Of a DNA stretch of 10,458 nt, positions 2,908 through 10,458 are shown piece by piece (the stretch's first letter is position 1; each line of letters begins with the position of its first letter). Source of the DNA: a virus (taxonomy: Duplodnaviria; Heunggongvirae; Uroviricota; Caudoviricetes); the IMG/VR virus record IMGVR_UViG_2974644367_000001, positions 74,237-84,694 of that record; one strand, 5' to 3'. The notes under the pieces are model-generated. The model was not told the DNA's origin, searched no databases, and saw only the letters and a program-made list of their open reading frames with translations. A program made the position numbers and the translations under genes.

Positions 2908-2941
2908 GCGATTTTTTAAAAACTTTTTCTTTTATTTTTTG

Positions 2942-2970
2942 TTGACTTTAGAAAGGACAATCTTTATATT
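2942..2970 (+). promoter_or_regulatory. Sigma70 early promoter P1
   Basis: TTGACT-17-TATATT with upstream T tracts; predicted +1 about 2977-2978 (ATCGAAACAA). Confidence 0.85.
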
Positions 2971-3006
2971 TCTATCCATCGAAACAACCACAACGGAATA
3001 AAGAAA

Positions 3007-3354
3007 ATGAGAGACCCTTTTACAAGAATGTGTAAAGAAGTAGTTAACTCAACATGCCCCATTAATGTTGTATGTAATCCGGCTAAACACTCTTACCATA
3101 CAGCGGTTAATTCTAAGGTGTCTAACGAGGACGCATACAGTTATTTTAAACAGTGTGTTGTTCGTTGCCCTGATGAAAAAATTCTTGCTACCGTGTCACA
3201 CGTTATCATTACACGTGCTGATAAGAATGTAATTGTTTTCGGCTGTTATGAAGATGCAGACAGCTACTATAAAGAGCTTTTCCCTGTTGATGCAGAAAGA
3301 GAAAAGTTTTTAGAAAAACAGTTTGACAACGGTTTTATGGTTTTGGTAAAGTAA
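3007..3354 (+). CDS. Early hypothetical protein (115 aa)
   Basis: Follows P1 and a GGAA SD; no recognised motif. Confidence 0.8.
   Translation: MRDPFTRMCKEVVNSTCPINVVCNPAKHSYHTAVNSKVSNEDAYSYFKQCVVRCPDEKILATVSHVIITRADKNVIVFGCYEDADSYYKELFPVDAEREKFLEKQFDNGFMVLVK
3323..3352 (+). promoter_or_regulatory. Sigma70 promoter P2, embedded in the 3' end of the upstream CDS
   Basis: TTGACA (3323-3328)-18-TAAAGT (3347-3352) with extended -10 TG; predicted +1 3359 gives the same ATCGAAACAA start as P1. Confidence 0.75.
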
Positions 3355-3394
3355 CCCCATCGAAACAAAGCAACCCTAAACAAGGAATAAAATT

Positions 3395-4060
3395 ATGAAT
3401 ACTCCATTTATCGTTAACGCTAAACAACGTGCTATCCTTGCTGATAACTCTTTCAACCCTTCAATCTCAAAAGAGGGTAAAAACATTCGGGAAGGTGTCA
3501 CGATTCAAAAGTTTCTAAATCGTATGGGTATCTATTGCGAGGGTTTAAACCTTCAATCAGAAATCTATTTAGAAGCCCGTGAGTATTCACAATCGCGGGA
3601 CGTGTACGGCAACCGCACGGCGCATTATTGCGTTACTGTAATGATTGATGATAAAAAGGCTGGCAAATATTATCATCCGTTTGACATCGTGGGAAGTGGT
3701 TCACGCCGTCAACAAGTCGGGTATGGTAAAGATAATGGCGACATTACATACAGCCTTGAAAAGTTGGGTTATCCGGTTGAACTTGTTCAACGTTATGAAG
3801 AGACATCCGGCGCAATCCGTTACACTTACAGATTAAAATCTTTAGAAAATCTTCAAAAGGTTGTTGACGCTGCAAACGGTAACTTGTACTATAGCGCCAC
3901 GGTTGAAGGTTACGAAATCAAAGCGCCGTTATTCAGCTTGATTGAATTGAAGATTAAAAACCTTGTGTCACGGAAACGAGATTCAAGCCGTAAATTTGCG
4001 GTAACTGTTAGCCGTCACAAGGGCGACAAAGTTTCAAAAGTAACACGTTTAAATTACTAA
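3395..4060 (+). CDS. Early hypothetical protein (221 aa)
   Basis: Leader AACCCTAAACAAGGAATAAAATT precedes the ATG; long ORF. Confidence 0.85.
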   Translation: MNTPFIVNAKQRAILADNSFNPSISKEGKNIREGVTIQKFLNRMGIYCEGLNLQSEIYLEAREYSQSRDVYGNRTAHYCVTVMIDDKKAGKYYHPFDIVGSGSRRQQVGYGKDNGDITYSLEKLGYPVELVQRYEETSGAIRYTYRLKSLENLQKVVDAANGNLYYSATVEGYEIKAPLFSLIELKIKNLVSRKRDSSRKFAVTVSRHKGDKVSKVTRLNY

Positions 4061-4061
4061 A

Positions 4062-4116
4062 AAGTGCTTTACATGGTGTTTGTACTTAGATAGTATAAGC
4101 ACCAGATAAAGAGCTT
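4062..4116 (+). promoter_or_regulatory. Type-A hairpin-promoter, copy A1
   Basis: TTTACA (4068-4073)-17-TAGTAT (4091-4096) inside a long imperfect inverted repeat. Confidence 0.8.
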
Positions 4117-4147
4117 TTACAAACAACCCTTATAAAGGAATCAAGAA

Positions 4148-4645
4148 ATGAATGCTACCTTCTCAATCATCAAGCCAACTTTTGAAATCCGTTTCACTGC
4201 TGAAATGTCTGAATGTTGCCCTGCTTTCTTTAGTGACCAGTGGAAACTAACAAACAATCATCAGGGCGGCGTGACTATCAAAAACCCTTTAGCTTGCCGC
4301 AATAGTTATCCTTATGCAATCCCGTTGCAATGCAGCCTTGCACAGCTTACAGCGGAGTATGCAGAACAGGGAAGGGATAACCCATCTAAAGCGGCTTATG
4401 ACAGCTTACAGGCACAATTAAAGCGTGACATTGAAGCGGCTGAATATTTCATTACAGGTGCAATCTTTGACCTTGAAGGAAACGAGGTGATTAATTCTGT
4501 TGCAATGGGTTACGGTTTTGATTACTCTTATCTTGATGAAGAATCATTAGAAGAATCTTTAGAGCGTAACGTAAAAGATTCAGATTGTGAAACGCAAATG
4601 ATTGAAGCCGTTGAAGAGTTCAAGAAAAGAATCTCAAAAATCTAG
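4148..4645 (+). CDS. Early hypothetical protein (165 aa, acidic C-terminal half)
   Basis: CCCTTATAAAGGAA leader; recalled as similar to conserved Felix O1-like early proteins (TNNHQGGVTIKNP), not verified. Confidence 0.85.
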   Translation: MNATFSIIKPTFEIRFTAEMSECCPAFFSDQWKLTNNHQGGVTIKNPLACRNSYPYAIPLQCSLAQLTAEYAEQGRDNPSKAAYDSLQAQLKRDIEAAEYFITGAIFDLEGNEVINSVAMGYGFDYSYLDEESLEESLERNVKDSDCETQMIEAVEEFKKRISKI

Positions 4646-4683
4646 TTGCAAAGGGGTTACGGTTATGAGACTATAACCCCGTC
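4646..4683 (+). promoter_or_regulatory. Type-B hairpin-promoter, copy B1
   Basis: TTGCAA (4646-4651)-17-GACTAT (4669-4674) with extended -10 TG; GGGGTTA/TAACCCC inverted repeat; the -35 starts immediately after the upstream TAG. Confidence 0.75.
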
Positions 4684-4714
4684 GAAACAAACAACCCTTA
4701 TAAAGGAAAAAATA

Positions 4715-4996
4715 ATGAATGTTACTACTTACAATAATCTTCCCCCTGTTATGGATATTACTTTGCGAGAGGGGCACGGAAAGGAAATGCAGTTTACTGA
4801 TTTACGTGCTGAATATAAGCCTTTGTGGTGGCATGATGCCGGACTTTCTAAAACTAAAAGTGGTTACGGAAAAAATATCCCTACGCCGTGGGCTGTCAAT
4901 TGGGCTGGACGTTTGCGCCGTATTTATTCAACTTGTTACGGTAACGCTGCAAGCCTACACATAAACGTAAACGGTAAAAAGATTGCTGTAATGTAA
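4715..4996 (+). CDS. Early hypothetical protein (93 aa)
   Basis: Start reassigned to ATG 4715 (SD AAGGA 4703-4707). The GYGKNIPT..GRLRRIY..CYGN pattern is recalled from widespread phage hypotheticals. Confidence 0.8.
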   Translation: MNVTTYNNLPPVMDITLREGHGKEMQFTDLRAEYKPLWWHDAGLSKTKSGYGKNIPTPWAVNWAGRLRRIYSTCYGNAASLHINVNGKKIAVM

Positions 4997-4999
4997 TAA

Positions 5000-5053
5000 A
5001 GAGCTTTACAGGGTGTTTAGAAGTTTGATAGTCTAAGCACCTGATAAAGAACT
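5000..5053 (+). promoter_or_regulatory. Type-A hairpin-promoter, copy A2
   Basis: TTTACA (5005-5010)-18-TAGTCT (5029-5034), extended -10 TG, same inverted-repeat scaffold. Confidence 0.8.
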
Positions 5054-5084
5054 TTATCAATCAACCCTTATAAAGGAAACTAAC

Positions 5085-5501
5085 ATGATTCTTTCACCGA
5101 AAACTTTTAGCCGTTCACTGGTTGCCTCAAACGATTCTAAAGCTGCTGAAAGATTCAGCGCCCAAGAACTTGTAAAGGTTGCCCGTCAATTCCTTGCAAC
5201 GTTTCCCGCTAATCGTGAGCGTTTTTCAAGTAACGTTTTGAACTTGACAAAATCGGTGGAAAACGTAGAATTCACGCAAGGCGTTATTGCTGAAATTGAC
5301 GACATCATGAAACGCGGTACTAACTATGCGATGAATGAATCTAAAGCGTTTGAATTCGCCGTTAAAACCGTGTTAGTATGTGATTACGGGTTTACTAACA
5401 TCGTTTCACACGGTATCAGTGATGCACTATGGAAAGATGCCGAAAACAGAAAATTTATGCTTGACTTGAAATCTGATTTTCTGGCACAATCTGGTTACTA
5501 A
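5085..5501 (+). CDS. Early hypothetical protein (138 aa)
   Basis: CCCTTATAAAGGAA leader; clean ORF. Confidence 0.85.
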   Translation: MILSPKTFSRSLVASNDSKAAERFSAQELVKVARQFLATFPANRERFSSNVLNLTKSVENVEFTQGVIAEIDDIMKRGTNYAMNESKAFEFAVKTVLVCDYGFTNIVSHGISDALWKDAENRKFMLDLKSDFLAQSGY

Positions 5502-5532
5502 TTTCACTAACTCTTAAACAGGAATAAACATC

Positions 5533-5748
5533 ATGAAAATTTTCTTCTCTTCTCGTTCTGCTATGCGTTCTGCGACTTTTGGTAAAGCAACCGACAACGG
5601 CAAAGAAGCAACTAAACGCTGGTCACGTGACTTTGCAAAGGTTATCCGCGCCAAACGTGTTGAAGTTGTCCAGCAGGTTAACAGCGTGACAGGCAAAGTC
5701 AAACCTGTTAAAGTGACTTTCCGTAAATCTCGCAAAGTGGCGGCATAA
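5533..5748 (+). CDS. Small, highly basic protein (71 aa)
   Basis: CTTAAACAGGAA leader; 19 K+R versus 4 D+E. Confidence 0.8.
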   Translation: MKIFFSSRSAMRSATFGKATDNGKEATKRWSRDFAKVIRAKRVEVVQQVNSVTGKVKPVKVTFRKSRKVAA

Positions 5749-5749
5749 C

Positions 5750-6085
5750 GTGACACAATCAACGGTAAATTATCTTATGGGGGGCGGCCTTGCCGCTCTT
5801 ACAGTGGGCGGGTTTTACTTGTTCAACCTCATCAAAGAGGTTAAGCAGGTAGACGCAAACAAAGGGGCTGTTAAATCGTTTTTAGACGGCCTTACAGCGG
5901 CGCAAACGTCTTTGTTGATGTCGTCTATTACTCACGGTCACAACTTTGCAGGGGACTTTATAGCGGCCTTAAATGACGCTCAAAAATACCAGTATTCGGG
6001 CTTGCTTTCTGTCATTGGTTCGGGTACATTAAAGCCATATTACAGTGAGATTGTAGAATCTCATCGGGAAAAGGTAAGAGGTTAA
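5750..6085 (+). CDS. Putative membrane-anchored protein (111 aa; start uncertain)
   Basis: GTG 1 nt after the upstream stop (alternative ATG 5777); hydrophobic segment LMGGGLAALTVGGFYLFNLI; weak SD. Confidence 0.7.
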   Translation: MTQSTVNYLMGGGLAALTVGGFYLFNLIKEVKQVDANKGAVKSFLDGLTAAQTSLLMSSITHGHNFAGDFIAALNDAQKYQYSGLLSVIGSGTLKPYYSEIVESHREKVRG

Positions 6086-6087
6086 AA

Positions 6088-6213
6088 ATGATTGGTCTGA
6101 TTATCGTTTTAGGCGCTATCGGTATTTTTGCTTTACGTGTTATCGGTGAATGTGTCGGATTAATCAGACCTTTCGAAGATGTTTTAGCCGAACGTGAAAA
6201 ACTTAAAAAGTAA
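6088..6213 (+). CDS. Small membrane protein (41 aa, absent from the ORF track)
   Basis: SD AAGAGG then ATG 6088; MIGLIIVLGAIGIFALRVIGECVGLIRPFEDVLAEREKLKK; exactly fills the gap between two genes. Confidence 0.7.
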   Translation: MIGLIIVLGAIGIFALRVIGECVGLIRPFEDVLAEREKLKK

Positions 6214-6227
6214 AAAGGGGCTTGAAA

Positions 6228-6461
6228 ATGGAAAGTGTAGCGGGTATATTGTTTGTCGTAATGTGTATTGCTGTTGTTTTGTGGTTGGCGTTACTGCCTG
6301 CAATCATAGCCAACAAGAAAGAAAGCACGAACAAAGGTTTTATAATCGGCTTAACAATCGTCGGATTATTTTTCTTTCCGTGCTGGATTATTGCTCTGAT
6401 TTGGGCTATTGTGGATTCATCAAGCCAGCCGCAAAAGGTTATTTTAGTAAAAGAGGTTTAA
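6228..6461 (+). CDS. imm: Superinfection immunity protein, T4 Imm-like
   Basis: Hydrophobic 77-aa protein with LPAIIA-NKK...IGLTIVGLFFFPCWIIALIWA, matching the recalled Imm pattern (LPxIIA...W..ALIWA); SD AAGGGG 7 nt before ATG 6228. Confidence 0.75.
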   Translation: MESVAGILFVVMCIAVVLWLALLPAIIANKKESTNKGFIIGLTIVGLFFFPCWIIALIWAIVDSSSQPQKVILVKEV

Positions 6462-6516
6462 AAGTGCTTTACAAGGTGTTTATAGTTAGTTACCATAAGC
6501 ACCAGATAAAGAGCTT
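6462..6516 (+). promoter_or_regulatory. Type-A hairpin-promoter, copy A3
   Basis: TTTACA (6468-6473)-17-TACCAT (6491-6496); same scaffold. Confidence 0.8.
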
Positions 6517-6547
6517 TTCAAAACAACCCTCAAAGAGGAATAAAATT

Positions 6548-7135
6548 ATGTTATGCGTCCACGGTACAACTTTAGAAAACTTCAAAATGATGATTGCCGG
6601 AGAAGGCAAGCCGTCCGGTGCATGGAACGTGTCAGAATGTGACGCCGCAACCTATTTCTACCCGCTTGATAAAATCGCTAAAGCTGAATGTCTTGAACTC
6701 TCTGATTTTGACGATGAGGCAGATTATCAGGCCGCTATCCTTGAAGCTGCAAAACGCCACGCAAGAGGAAACGCCACGACAACGGCGGCAATCCTTGAAC
6801 GTGATGCTAAACTGATTATTTTTCTTGCTGATGTTCCCGATTGCCTATTAGAGGATGATTATTCTTGTGATAACATGGCCGATATTGCCTCTTTCATTCA
6901 TGAAGATGATTTTAAGGTTGAAATGATTCTTAAAATCTGGCAGTATGAGTTTTTCGGAATCTTTAGCCCGTATTGTGTGCAACCTGATAACCCTTACACG
7001 GCGACAATGAGTTATCACCTTGAACAAATGGCAAGGGCTATCCAGAATTCAAACGCTTATCTTTATGATACTATTGAAGAGTCATTAGATGAGAGTGAAC
7101 AAGAAAAAGATTTAGATTTTCTGATTAACATCTAA
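6548..7135 (+). CDS. Acidic early protein (195 aa) with an N-terminal HGT motif; possible ADP-ribosyltransferase-like fold
   Basis: Start reassigned to ATG 6548 (SD GAGGA after A3); 38 D+E versus 13 K+R. The CDS is well supported; the fold is speculative. Confidence 0.8.
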   Translation: MLCVHGTTLENFKMMIAGEGKPSGAWNVSECDAATYFYPLDKIAKAECLELSDFDDEADYQAAILEAAKRHARGNATTTAAILERDAKLIIFLADVPDCLLEDDYSCDNMADIASFIHEDDFKVEMILKIWQYEFFGIFSPYCVQPDNPYTATMSYHLEQMARAIQNSNAYLYDTIEESLDESEQEKDLDFLINI

Positions 7136-7142
7136 AAAGAGC

Positions 7143-7180
7143 TTTACAGGGGGTTACGGTTATGAGACTATAACCCCGTC
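7143..7180 (+). promoter_or_regulatory. Type-B hairpin-promoter, copy B2 (A-type upstream half)
   Basis: TTTACA (7143-7148)-17-GACTAT (7166-7171); 31-bp core identical to B1 and B3. Confidence 0.78.
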
Positions 7181-7213
7181 GAAACAAACAACCCCTTATA
7201 AAGGAATCAAAAC

Positions 7214-7540
7214 ATGTTACACATTGCCCACATGCAAAACTACCGTTCACGCACTGCATCAGTAAAACGTTATGGCAAATTTAAAGCGATGCGTTTTGAA
7301 TGGGCTTGCTATCGTAAATTCCTGAATTTTGACCGCTCAAAGTTTGTTGTACACTCTCAACCGCTGGATAATCGCAAGTTAGAAGCCCTTGCCCGTCACG
7401 CTGGCTTAATCCTTGCAAAACACGGTCAAGACGTTGCAAGCGACTTTGTAAACCGTTGTTTTACCGCTTTACCGTATACCAATAATCTAACGGTTGGCCT
7501 GTTTATTGAACGTGTTGAATTCTTCGCAACAACACACTAA
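7214..7540 (+). CDS. Early hypothetical protein (108 aa)
   Basis: CCTTATAAAGGAA leader; YRSRTASVKR and GLFIERVE recalled from Felix O1-like early proteins (unverified). Confidence 0.85.
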   Translation: MLHIAHMQNYRSRTASVKRYGKFKAMRFEWACYRKFLNFDRSKFVVHSQPLDNRKLEALARHAGLILAKHGQDVASDFVNRCFTALPYTNNLTVGLFIERVEFFATTH

Positions 7541-7546
7541 AAAGCA

Positions 7547-7584
7547 TTGCAAAGGGGTTACGGTTATGAGACTATAACCCCGTC
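7547..7584 (+). promoter_or_regulatory. Type-B hairpin-promoter, copy B3
   Basis: TTGCAA (7547-7552)-17-GACTAT (7570-7575). Confidence 0.75.
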
Positions 7585-7613
7585 AAAAGAAAACCTTAAA
7601 CAGGAATCAAAAC

Positions 7614-7859
7614 ATGTTAAATCATCAAAGCGGTATCGTTTCCCTTGAAAGTGGTCAAGAAATCACTCTGGCAAAACTGCAAGAAATCTATCTTGACTGG
7701 ATTAATAATTTCTTGACTGTTGAACGTTTCGCAGAATATTACGCTTTAGAAGTTGATGAAGCGCAAATAATCATTCAAGCGGGGCATAAGGTGCAAGGGC
7801 TTTACTCTGGAATGTTAAAAGAGCTTCAAGCCAGCGCATTAAAAGCACTTCAAGACTAA
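7614..7859 (+). CDS. Early hypothetical protein (81 aa)
   Basis: CCTTAAACAGGAA leader; YLDWINNFLTVERFAEYY recalled as a common small phage family. Confidence 0.85.
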   Translation: MLNHQSGIVSLESGQEITLAKLQEIYLDWINNFLTVERFAEYYALEVDEAQIIIQAGHKVQGLYSGMLKELQASALKALQD

Positions 7860-7860
7860 A

Positions 7861-7916
7861 AAGAGCTTTACAAGGTGTTTAGATGTTTGATAATCTAAGC
7901 ACCTGATAAAGAGCTT
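7861..7916 (+). promoter_or_regulatory. Type-A hairpin-promoter, copy A4
   Basis: TTTACA (7867-7872)-18-TAATCT (7891-7896), extended -10 TG; 19 of 23 symmetric positions pair. Confidence 0.82.
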
Positions 7917-7936
7917 TCTTAAAAAGGTGAAAACGC

Positions 7937-8215
7937 ATGAAAATGACAGATTCAGAACAGAAAACTGTTCAACGTCTAATGAAAGATTTAGGCTTTACCA
8001 CTATGACCGCCACAAAACAACCCGTTATGGAATGGTACAACGGCGTAATAGATGCAAAGGAAAAGATTGTAAACCTCTGGCGCTTCAATGGTGAATTGCA
8101 ATTTGAAGTTTACGACAACACAAACAAAAGCCCTACAAAGTCAACTAAAGATTTAGAACAATCTTACACGATTTGGGCAAACGGTCATTTTATCATCAAT
8201 CCGAAAAAGGTGTAA
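7937..8215 (+). CDS. Early hypothetical protein (92 aa)
   Basis: SD AAGGTG 7 nt upstream, directly behind A4. Confidence 0.8.
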   Translation: MKMTDSEQKTVQRLMKDLGFTTMTATKQPVMEWYNGVIDAKEKIVNLWRFNGELQFEVYDNTNKSPTKSTKDLEQSYTIWANGHFIINPKKV

Positions 8216-8218
8216 ATA

Positions 8219-8464
8219 ATGGTACTCTTTCCAACAATCTTGTTAATTGCTTCATCATGTTCTAACCTGAATTCTTGCCAATTCTCACAGCTTGATAGCT
8301 GGCAAGGTGTCCCGTCAAATGTGAGTATTGAAGAGTGTATAGCCCGCCGTGGCGACTTTCCAGATGATGAAACAGGGTGTTTTGTACTTGCCGGAGAAGA
8401 TGCCAAAACGCTAACCCTTGAAAACATCGAAACAGGGGAATGGGTAGAAATCGACAAAGATTAA
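8219..8464 (+). CDS. Small Cys-containing, probably exported protein (YebW/DUF1482-like pattern)
   Basis: Hydrophobic N-terminus, C-x5-C ... EEC-x13-CF; SD AAGGTG inside the upstream gene end. Confidence 0.7.
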   Translation: MVLFPTILLIASSCSNLNSCQFSQLDSWQGVPSNVSIEECIARRGDFPDDETGCFVLAGEDAKTLTLENIETGEWVEIDKD

Positions 8465-8477
8465 ATTATTTTTCATC

Positions 8478-8499
8478 AGGGGCTTTACAGCCCCTTTTT
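8478..8499 (+). terminator. Rho-independent terminator overlapping the next promoter
   Basis: AGGGGC-TTTACA-GCCCCT followed by TTTT. Confidence 0.8.
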
Positions 8500-8513
8500 C
8501 GTTTTGCTATACT
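8484..8513 (+). promoter_or_regulatory. Sigma70 promoter
   Basis: TTTACA (8484-8489)-18-TATACT (8508-8513) with extended -10 TG. Confidence 0.82.
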
Positions 8514-8566
8514 CTTTTCATCGGTTGAGCAGTCAACCACAACAAAACCTTAAACAGGAATAAAAC

Positions 8567-9139
8567 ATGAAAAAGTCAATCGCAATCAACCTTATCCGCT
8601 CTTCTTCTGTAATGACCCGTATCAACAAAGAAAGCTGGACTTTTCAGACCTCTTTTAGCGGTGAATTCGCAGTAATCAACAAGGCTTCAAATGGTGTCTA
8701 TTTCGTCCACACTAAAGGCAACAAGGCAACCACACACAAAACCTTTATGGCGGCTGTTGCGTCCATCCTTGACCTGTATTTAGAAATCATTCATGATTCT
8801 ATGCGCCGTAAGATTCAGGAGCTTAAAAGCCGTTACAACTCCTTAGAACTGATGCGCTACACTCACAAAGATAACCTTAATCGTTTTGTTATCGCTGATG
8901 AAGTTTTAGACATCATGCAGGGTGAAAATGGTGAAATTGTGACCGACATTTTAAAGGGTAACTTTGCAACGTATCGCACTGAATTAGCCGCTAAAGCCGC
9001 CATGAAACATCGTTTTGTGTCTGCTGCTTACACACTTGAAAGTGTTATTGAAAGGATGAGTAAAGCAACGTTTAAGACGCTCACACTATTACAAGCCAAC
9101 TTACCAGAATCTTTCAAAGTAACCACTTTCGACGCTTGA
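8567..9139 (+). CDS. Early hypothetical protein (190 aa)
   Basis: CCTTAAACAGGAA leader; clean ORF. Confidence 0.85.
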   Translation: MKKSIAINLIRSSSVMTRINKESWTFQTSFSGEFAVINKASNGVYFVHTKGNKATTHKTFMAAVASILDLYLEIIHDSMRRKIQELKSRYNSLELMRYTHKDNLNRFVIADEVLDIMQGENGEIVTDILKGNFATYRTELAAKAAMKHRFVSAAYTLESVIERMSKATFKTLTLLQANLPESFKVTTFDA

Positions 9140-9170
9140 CAGGTAACATCAAAGGGGGTTAAAATCCCCC
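9136..9170 (+). promoter_or_regulatory. Sigma70 promoter with GGGGG/CCCCC flanking the -10
   Basis: TTGACA (9136-9141, contains the upstream TGA stop)-18-TAAAAT (9160-9165); +1 about 9172 (ATCAAACAA). Confidence 0.75.
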
Positions 9171-9204
9171 TATCAAACAAAAACCTTAAACAGGAACAAA
9201 CAAA

Positions 9205-9498: not shown

Positions 9499-9592
9499 GT
9501 TTTAAGGGTTTTCTCTTAATCCACCCTTTCTATATTCTGTATTCCTCTCTTTAAAGACTCTTTACCATTCCTTTGATTATCGTCTAATTGTC

Positions 9593-9891
9593 TTCTAAAC
9601 AGCATTCTAAGCCGTTAACACTGGCATATAGTCCCGCTATAGTGATTCTTCTAAACAGTCTTCTAAACCGTTCCACTCCTTCCCTAACAGTGGGAACCCC
9701 ACAGGGAACCAGATTAGACAGTCTTCTATAACCCTTCTAAATCGCATTCTAAGCGTTTCTAAGTCTACCCCTTACGATTGGGTTAGTAACCCTTCTAAGT
9801 CTCTTCTAAGAGCATTCTACGGCCTCATTAAATGATTGCTTTCACACTTGCTTTCTGTTAGTCTTCTAAGCCCCTTCTAAGAGTCTTCTAC
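9593..9891 (+). repeat. Helically phased TTCTA(A) array
   Basis: 14 copies at 9593, 9605; 9649, 9661; 9724, 9735, 9747, 9757; 9793, 9804, 9815; 9864, 9875, 9886 (10-12 bp steps within clusters). Confidence 0.88.
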
Positions 9892-10034
9892 GATGAATCA
9901 CTATCATTGATTGTTGGTTGTTGGAGTCTTCAAAACGTCTTATTGTTGGCTTGTCAGACTCTTAAAAGATGGGTTAAGATACTGGACAAAACACTGTCAA
10001 TATTTACGCTATGGTTAGCCACTTTTACATTTCG

Positions 10035-10437
10035 TTAACAACTTTTTAACATCTCTGCAACATTCTATTCAGTCATCTGCATAACATCTTGACAACATTC
10101 TATTAACATTCCTGTTACAACTCTTTAACGATTCTTTAACACGGTCATGTTAAGAGTCTGTTACAACCCTGTTAAAATTTCTCGATACAAATTAACATTT
10201 CGATAACATGGTGATTCAACTGTAAAGCCATTTGTCAAGTCTAATAAATTCTCTTCAAACCCTTGACAATCCTGATTAGTTGAGTTGTTAAGACCCTGTT
10301 AAAATCCTGTTAAGATTGTTAAAGAGAATGGGTAAATGTTAACGGATTAGATGAATTGTTAAGAGCTTTGGAGAGTTGTTAAGAGACTGTTAAGAGAATG
10401 TTGCAGATATGTTAAGATTTTGCAAAGGAACGGTTAA
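10035..10437. repeat. 11-bp-phased TTAACA / TGTTAA arrays in inverted arrangement
   Basis: TTAACA-like at 10035, 10046, 10057, 10081-10136 (six at exact 11-bp steps), 10192, 10203; TGTTAA-like at 10148, 10159, 10170, 10286, 10297, 10308, 10317, 10337, 10357, 10377, 10388, 10399, 10410, 10432. Confidence 0.9.
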
Positions 10438-10458
10438 CTTCTGAGAAGCGGCCACTAA

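Follow-up and report, generated by a model that had tools for sequence, protein, structure and literature searches.

Outward-facing ladders of ArcA-like boxes in the terminal repeat of a Felix O1-like Erwinia phage, with two candidate readers

What purpose is served by some 25 TGTTAA/TTAACA boxes set at 11-bp pitch in opposing blocks (10035-10437) near the end of a phage genome, and which protein, if any, reads them? The window, i.e., the whole stretch of DNA analysed, is 10,458 bases long and forms the final part of a complete phage record of 84,694 bp; all coordinates refer to the window unless marked as genome. An earlier sequence-only reading had offered three answers: a decoy for host ArcA or a similar regulator, a redox-sensitive control on replication or packaging, and a symmetric loop formed by a phage winged-helix protein. 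Over its final kilobase it shares 92-98% identity with Kolesnikvirus (Ounavirinae) phages of Erwinia, Salmonella and Hafnia, and the right part of the window shares 69-79% identity with Felixounavirus, Mooglevirus and Suspvirus. By sequence comparison the source phage is a Felix O1-like Erwinia phage, a Kolesnikvirus of the Ounavirinae.

The array is the terminal repeat of the genome, because genome positions 1-444 are identical to genome positions 84251-84694 (window 10015-10458). The same 444 bp thus stand at both genome ends, as is characteristic of a short exact direct terminal repeat (DTR; T7-type ends). For the close relative SPARTY a DTR of 439 bp was reported, determined with PhageTerm on long reads (PMC8928762). 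The record ends of SPARTY and Roscha1 map at most 4 nt from the limits of the 444-bp repeat; an assembly overlap, considered as its source, was rejected because of this agreement. The symmetric nucleoprotein site proposed earlier is the best frame for the array, and it lies at the terminus; that the array is the DTR had been missed, terminus mapping having been listed only as a check.

The DTR is AT-rich and gene-free. Both flanking gene sets are transcribed toward it, so that it has no obvious promoter to regulate; matches to the promoter consensus within it are weak (9 vs 5.1 +/- 2.2 by chance). An Rfam search returned no match, no DnaA box was found in the DTR, no IHF consensus at the junction, and the E. 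coli Chi octamer is absent from both strands of the whole genome. As a single strand the DTR folds stably (z -4.6), but this follows from the opposed orientation of the boxes and is not counted as evidence.

Exact boxes in the DTR number 16 (11 on the + strand, 5 on the - strand), compared with a mean of 0.76 and a maximum of 4 in dinucleotide shuffles. Same-strand pairs exactly 11 bp apart number 13 (mean 0.12 and maximum 2 in 1000 shuffles); both counts greatly exceed chance, and the densest 400-bp window genome-wide holds 16 boxes vs 0.53 expected. With in-register variants included there are approximately 27 boxes, the earlier estimate having been about 25. They form two outward-facing ladders, which begin 9 bp from the left end of the DTR and stop approximately 20 bp short of its right end (Table 1). 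Leftward boxes mostly on the left and rightward boxes on the right had been noted before, and this polarity is borne out, as are the 11-bp runs at 10148-10170 and 10286-10308 and the inverted repeat, in which 10046-10066 matches 10395-10415 at 20/21 positions. The run at 10377-10410 is present and continues in register to 10421 and 10432. The run of six boxes at 10081-10136 exists on the - strand, but only two of its boxes are exact, the others carrying one or two mismatches. The runs of the earlier layout are real, but it had overlooked the ladder of four boxes at 10024-10057, one step of 9 bp and a run at 20-bp pitch. Inboard of the left DTR, GTTAAG boxes occur at 12-13-bp pitch.

Table 1. 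Features of the DTR and its inboard flank (window coordinates)
Feature	Position	Strand	Remarks
Direct terminal repeat, right copy, 444 bp	10015..10458	.	true ends at most about 4 nt from these limits
Left-end ladder, four boxes, 11-bp pitch (10024-10057)	10024..10062	-	ArcA box scores 20.4, 19.7 and 15.1 bits
Six boxes, 11-bp pitch (10081-10136)	10081..10141	-	ArcA box scores 11.8-17.8 bits
Three boxes, 11-bp pitch (10148-10170)	10148..10175	+	
Box pair, 11-bp pitch (10192, 10203)	10192..10208	-	ArcA score 20.5 bits
Three boxes, 11-bp pitch (10286-10308), then one after a 9-bp step (10317)	10286..10322	+	
Four exact boxes, 20-bp pitch (10317, 10337, 10357, 10377)	10317..10382	+	pitch kept in four genera
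Right-end ladder, six boxes, 11-bp pitch, two degenerate (10377-10432)	10377..10437	+	best ArcA score 19.3 bits
Inverted repeat 20/21, left arm	10046..10066	+	
Inverted repeat 20/21, right arm	10395..10415	-	
Right-end anchor, 18 bp, about 35-50 bp inside the right end	10407..10424	+	kept in all seven lineages compared; candidate terminase recognition core
TTCTAA array next to the inner end of the right DTR, with 11 exact copies spaced 10-12 bp	9582..9891	+	genus-specific flank; without ArcA score

Five further lineages share this outward-facing ladder. It occupies the terminal gaps of four named phages, Felix O1, Moogle HP1, SUSP2 and Arno162, the last a phage of Pectobacterium; in Mooglevirus HP1 a repeat_region is annotated at 1-570. 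The fifth is the distant metagenomic phage G001 (L224), whose DUF5681 protein is 45% identical and whose terminal gap is filled in the same manner. That ladder starts with the same 14 bases as the left end of the source phage, and a looser copy of the 18-bp right-end anchor is present. The anchor itself is kept in all seven lineages compared, and both the 9-bp and the 20-bp pitches in four genera. The Hafnia phages Zyzzx and SarahDanielle, and also LPML1, carry instead a ladder of 19-23 copies of TGTAAA at 10-bp pitch (L128:10900-11520, L213, L225). LPML1 (OK283618.1) was deposited as a Listeria phage, yet it belongs to the Ounavirinae near Hafnia phage Zyzzx; its host label is probably wrong. 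The DTR of Pakpunavirus, too distant from the source phage to serve as a test, contains no such boxes, and its host is not known to have ArcA.

The element belongs to the known short exact DTRs of the Ounavirinae (SPARTY, 439 bp, PMC8928762; HP1, 1-570), with which it shares its limits and its place between the early-gene and lysis arms. These DTRs have been published as length and packaging class only, and no description of box ladders in them was found. Likewise, no description of the ladder, or of a phage ArcA site at genome termini, was found in the literature, and the text of the PhageMaP study on Bas63 reports nothing for the DTR.

Whoever the reader is, the ladder probably serves the processing of genome ends. 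It is very unlikely that the ladders have no specific reader at all, having arisen by slippage and copying and giving the junction a bendable shape or keeping it gene-free. The motifs do vary by flank and lineage (TTCTAA, TGTAAA, TGTTAA), and the ladder of Yersinia phage P778 is degenerate; but cores are kept while spacers vary from copy to copy, the differences among the three kolesnikviruses compared fall almost wholly in the spacers, outside the box cores, and the orientation of the boxes is kept between lineages without other DTR similarity.

Two proteins, host ArcA and the small terminase of the phage, are the leading candidates for the reader; they are nearly tied, and ArcA is ranked first. 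For ArcA, a matrix was tallied by hand from the 115 ArcA boxes in Table S3 of PMC3798270; it reproduced three published scores within 0.6 bit. The DTR contains 18 sites of at least 10 bits (0.55 in shuffles), with a top score of 20.5, and nine of the ten sites in the genome that reach 15 bits (0.05 in shuffles). The ArcA likeness proposed earlier thus stands up to matrix scoring against shuffles. Known ArcA sites consist of at least two TGTTA-type repeats spaced 11 bp apart and score 9-21 bits, and the DTR has sites of this description. ArcA accepts spacings of 11 or 22 bp, and a 12-bp step abolished binding; inside the ladders the additional repeats keep to this rule, but the conserved 9- and 20-bp steps break it. 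The in-register variants are of kinds tolerated by ArcA in the source phage (p<5e-5), in Arno162 (p 0.003) and in Moogle (p 0.02), but not significantly so in SUSP2 (p 0.11) and Felix O1 (p 0.24); homologous positions do not yield independent variants, and the null model for substitutions is a weak one. In 8 of the 10 terminal boxes with TGTTG, some of them at homologous positions, the next base is C, vs 53 of 322 (16%) elsewhere in the genome; by our count from Table S3 of PMC3798270, ArcA half-sites with G at position 6 have C at position 7 in 23 of 31 cases. The TGTTGC habit of the boxes thus matches ArcA half-sites. Their 3' flanks, on the other hand, are richer in G than those of ArcA sites, and TGTTAG, which is rare for ArcA, is common in the boxes of Felix O1 and SUSP2. 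A decoy for the -35 element of sigma-70 was also considered and rejected, because it explains neither the tandem 11-bp pitch nor the TGTTGC variant.

A high ArcA score alone cannot name the reader, because outward-facing TGTTAA ladders occur in unrelated phages or elements too (L067:7180-7530, L060:618-930, L042:7115-7500), where they adjoin genes for a sigma-factor-like protein, a primase or a terminase. Two more ArcA-like sites of 19 bits lie in intergenic gaps of Arno162 beyond its terminal region (L007:3891 and 7543).

The complete genome was also searched for a reader of its own. The symmetric layout behind the earlier proposal is real, but among the families searched no phage winged-helix protein that could bind it was found: no match to the OmpR-type winged helix (PF00486) was obtained at E<=1, and no Nu1 or Terminase_2 protein was found. 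A DUF5681 protein of 121 aa (genome 4355-4720, L005), outside the window, is conserved throughout the Ounavirinae. Its gene heads the arm carrying the tRNAs and the large terminase gene (genome 9585-11189), 4.9 kb upstream of the latter across the tRNA cluster. Of 51 unrelated viral contigs, at least 36 have a large terminase gene following the DUF5681-motif gene, which thus takes the slot typical of a small terminase. The predicted structure (pLDDT 70) has a helical hairpin beside a basic arm and is not a winged helix; the model made from the single sequence was poor. The fold known for TerS comprises a DNA-binding end, a helical hairpin and a C-terminal strand. Fold searches with the model gave no significant match, the TerS of 44RR and G20c appearing only at E 7-9, and an Atlas search returned DUF5681 clusters only. 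The DUF5681 protein is likely the small terminase of the Ounavirinae, with the tRNA cluster lying between its gene and terL; no description of an Ounavirinae small terminase was found in the literature.

It is possible, though slightly less probable than a role for ArcA, that this small terminase reads the ladder itself. A ring of subunits would then wrap the DTR, one basic GNPxGRP arm meeting one box per helical turn, and the match to ArcA would be coincidental. The genomic position of DUF5681-motif genes and the conservation of the gene in the Ounavirinae point this way, and the mixed pitches (9, 10, 11, 12, 13 and 20) suit the reading of single boxes on a curved surface. The boxes also resemble the R boxes of lambda cosB. 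Furthermore, residue 13 of the DUF5681 arm is H in the three phages with TGTAAA ladders and Q in all 46 other Ounavirinae proteins, the sole change among 26 otherwise invariant columns, so that the ladder switch (TGTAAA, 10 bp) and the altered arm of the small terminase occur in the same phages. This link, however, is a single evolutionary event, and 59 of 66 unrelated terminase-adjacent proteins likewise have Q, yet the 155 kb around their genes contain no TGTTAA pair at 11 bp. Recognition by an arm in the minor groove leaves the recurrence of TGTTGC unaccounted for, and near-optimal ArcA sites, if kept, would invite competition from the host.

Tentatively preferred is the reading in which host ArcA binds the ladders in an architectural role, with terminase at the anchor. 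At concatemer junctions the DTR would be a protein-coated scaffold for processing genome ends. Terminase (the DUF5681 small subunit plus the large subunit) would read the right-end anchor and the cut sites; host ArcA-P would coat the ladders head-to-tail and bend the DNA, and the bend would bring the two cut sites of one junction together. ArcA would be a helpful, probably dispensable factor, comparable to its part at plasmid psi and to that of IHF at lambda cos. The concentration of high-scoring sites in the DTR, the tolerated variants in the source phage and Arno162, the TGTTGC habit and the recurrence of the outward ladder from Felix O1 to the distant metagenomic phage all argue for this reading, as do converging flanking genes that leave no obvious promoter to control. 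In the Hafnia lineage motif and pitch have shifted together, and by consensus comparison TGTAAA at 10-bp pitch fits CpxR (PMC9603713). The phage has no OmpR-type protein of its own, while E. amylovora possesses ArcA/ArcB (PMC6895013), and a precedent exists in the wrapping of psi by ArcA and PepA.

Against ArcA stand the 9- and 20-bp pitches, which are not ArcA spacings although kept in four genera, the recurrence of the GTTAAG box outside the DTR at 12-13-bp pitch, the G-rich 3' flanks, the frequent TGTTAG, and the arm change that accompanies the ladder switch. In a screen for FelixO1 resistance in Salmonella, arcA was not among the hits, and arcB was weak (2.9, 2.6) and common to a T5-like phage too (PMC8744999). 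A wider proposal is more doubtful: that Felix O1-like lytic phages may have built their DTR from sites of host two-component regulators (ArcA, and CpxR in one Hafnia-phage lineage) used as an architectural protein for end processing, in which case host physiology could tune DNA maturation.

A redox-sensitive control, the second of the original answers, is weak. Near-consensus ArcA sites with four repeats stay bound even with oxygen (PMC4173790), which makes a redox switch unlikely even if ArcA binds; the ladder sites are expected to be filled with or without oxygen, because they hold four to six near-consensus repeats. Least probable is the decoy, in which replicated DTRs would titrate host ArcA-P and lift the repression of respiration genes. 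Each DTR offers approximately 27 high-scoring half-sites, and late in infection, with perhaps hundreds of copies present, the effect could be appreciable; but only two copies enter the cell, the effect would be late and confined to low oxygen, and a sponge needs no symmetric arms fitted to the cut sites. It is likewise unlikely, though somewhat less so than a decoy, that the DTR is a replication origin or a primer or duplication site, with the boxes as iterons for another phage or host protein. The AT-rich, gene-free DTR with phased direct repeats would suit an origin, and comparable outward-facing boxes stand beside the primase gene of an unrelated element (L060); however, no initiator candidate was found, the DTR has no DnaA box, and the arms match the cut sites rather than an internal unwinding element.

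Among known systems, the concatemer junction of T7 reportedly has a 160-bp terminal repeat and the short-repeat arrays SRL and SRR, as Dunn and Studier are said to have described in 1983. Both elements combine an exact DTR with arrays of short motifs on the inner side of each end, the motifs here being TTCTAA and GTTAAG. In contrast to T7, the DTR here is itself a two-armed ladder of one-turn pitch that matches a host regulator, and there is no phage RNA polymerase promoter system. At lambda cosB, boxes R1-R3 bind gpNu1 and IHF bends the DNA. The proposed likeness is that a terminase complex, aided by a host protein, is organised by opposed boxes beside the point of cutting; the phage differs in having no Nu1 homolog, no IHF consensus at the junction, and a DTR instead of cohesive ends. 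With the multi-repeat ArcA sites of E. coli (PMC3798270, PMC4173790) the ladders share the core, the 11-bp pitch, the tolerated variants and scores of 10-20 bits, whereas here the sites are predicted only, with at most six repeats per run, approximately 27 boxes facing both ways, steps of 9 and 20 bp and no promoter under control. In the accessory sequence psi of pSC101, ArcA and PepA form a wrapped synapse (10.64898/2026.02.23.706985). There, as predicted for the DTR, a mobile element employs ArcA as an architectural factor; here, however, the site is a linear genome end with far more boxes, and a Xer core is not expected.

Beyond T7 and T3, little is known about how phages recognise, duplicate and cut T7-type terminal repeats. 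Felix O1-like phages are used in diagnostics and biocontrol, and their small terminase was hitherto without assignment; a mapped cis element and a small-terminase candidate are gained. The lineage with altered box, pitch and arm residue is a natural experiment that could separate the two candidate readers. If ArcA is the reader, a host response regulator would have been recruited to the genome ends of a lytic phage; if terminase is, the ladder would be a packaging signal of the usual kind, for which a protein has now been assigned.

Other features were observed in the remainder of the window. An Rz/Rz1-like spanin pair and a Tk.4-like macrodomain/phosphatase gene (1262-1757 and 1765-2547) were assigned from the annotation in relatives. 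A 37-bp unit is repeated 3.8 times at 2595-2738, downstream of the terminator that follows the macrodomain gene and ahead of the first early promoter. Small early genes occupy 2940-9200, each with repeated promoter, hairpin and leader units upstream (families D1-D5).
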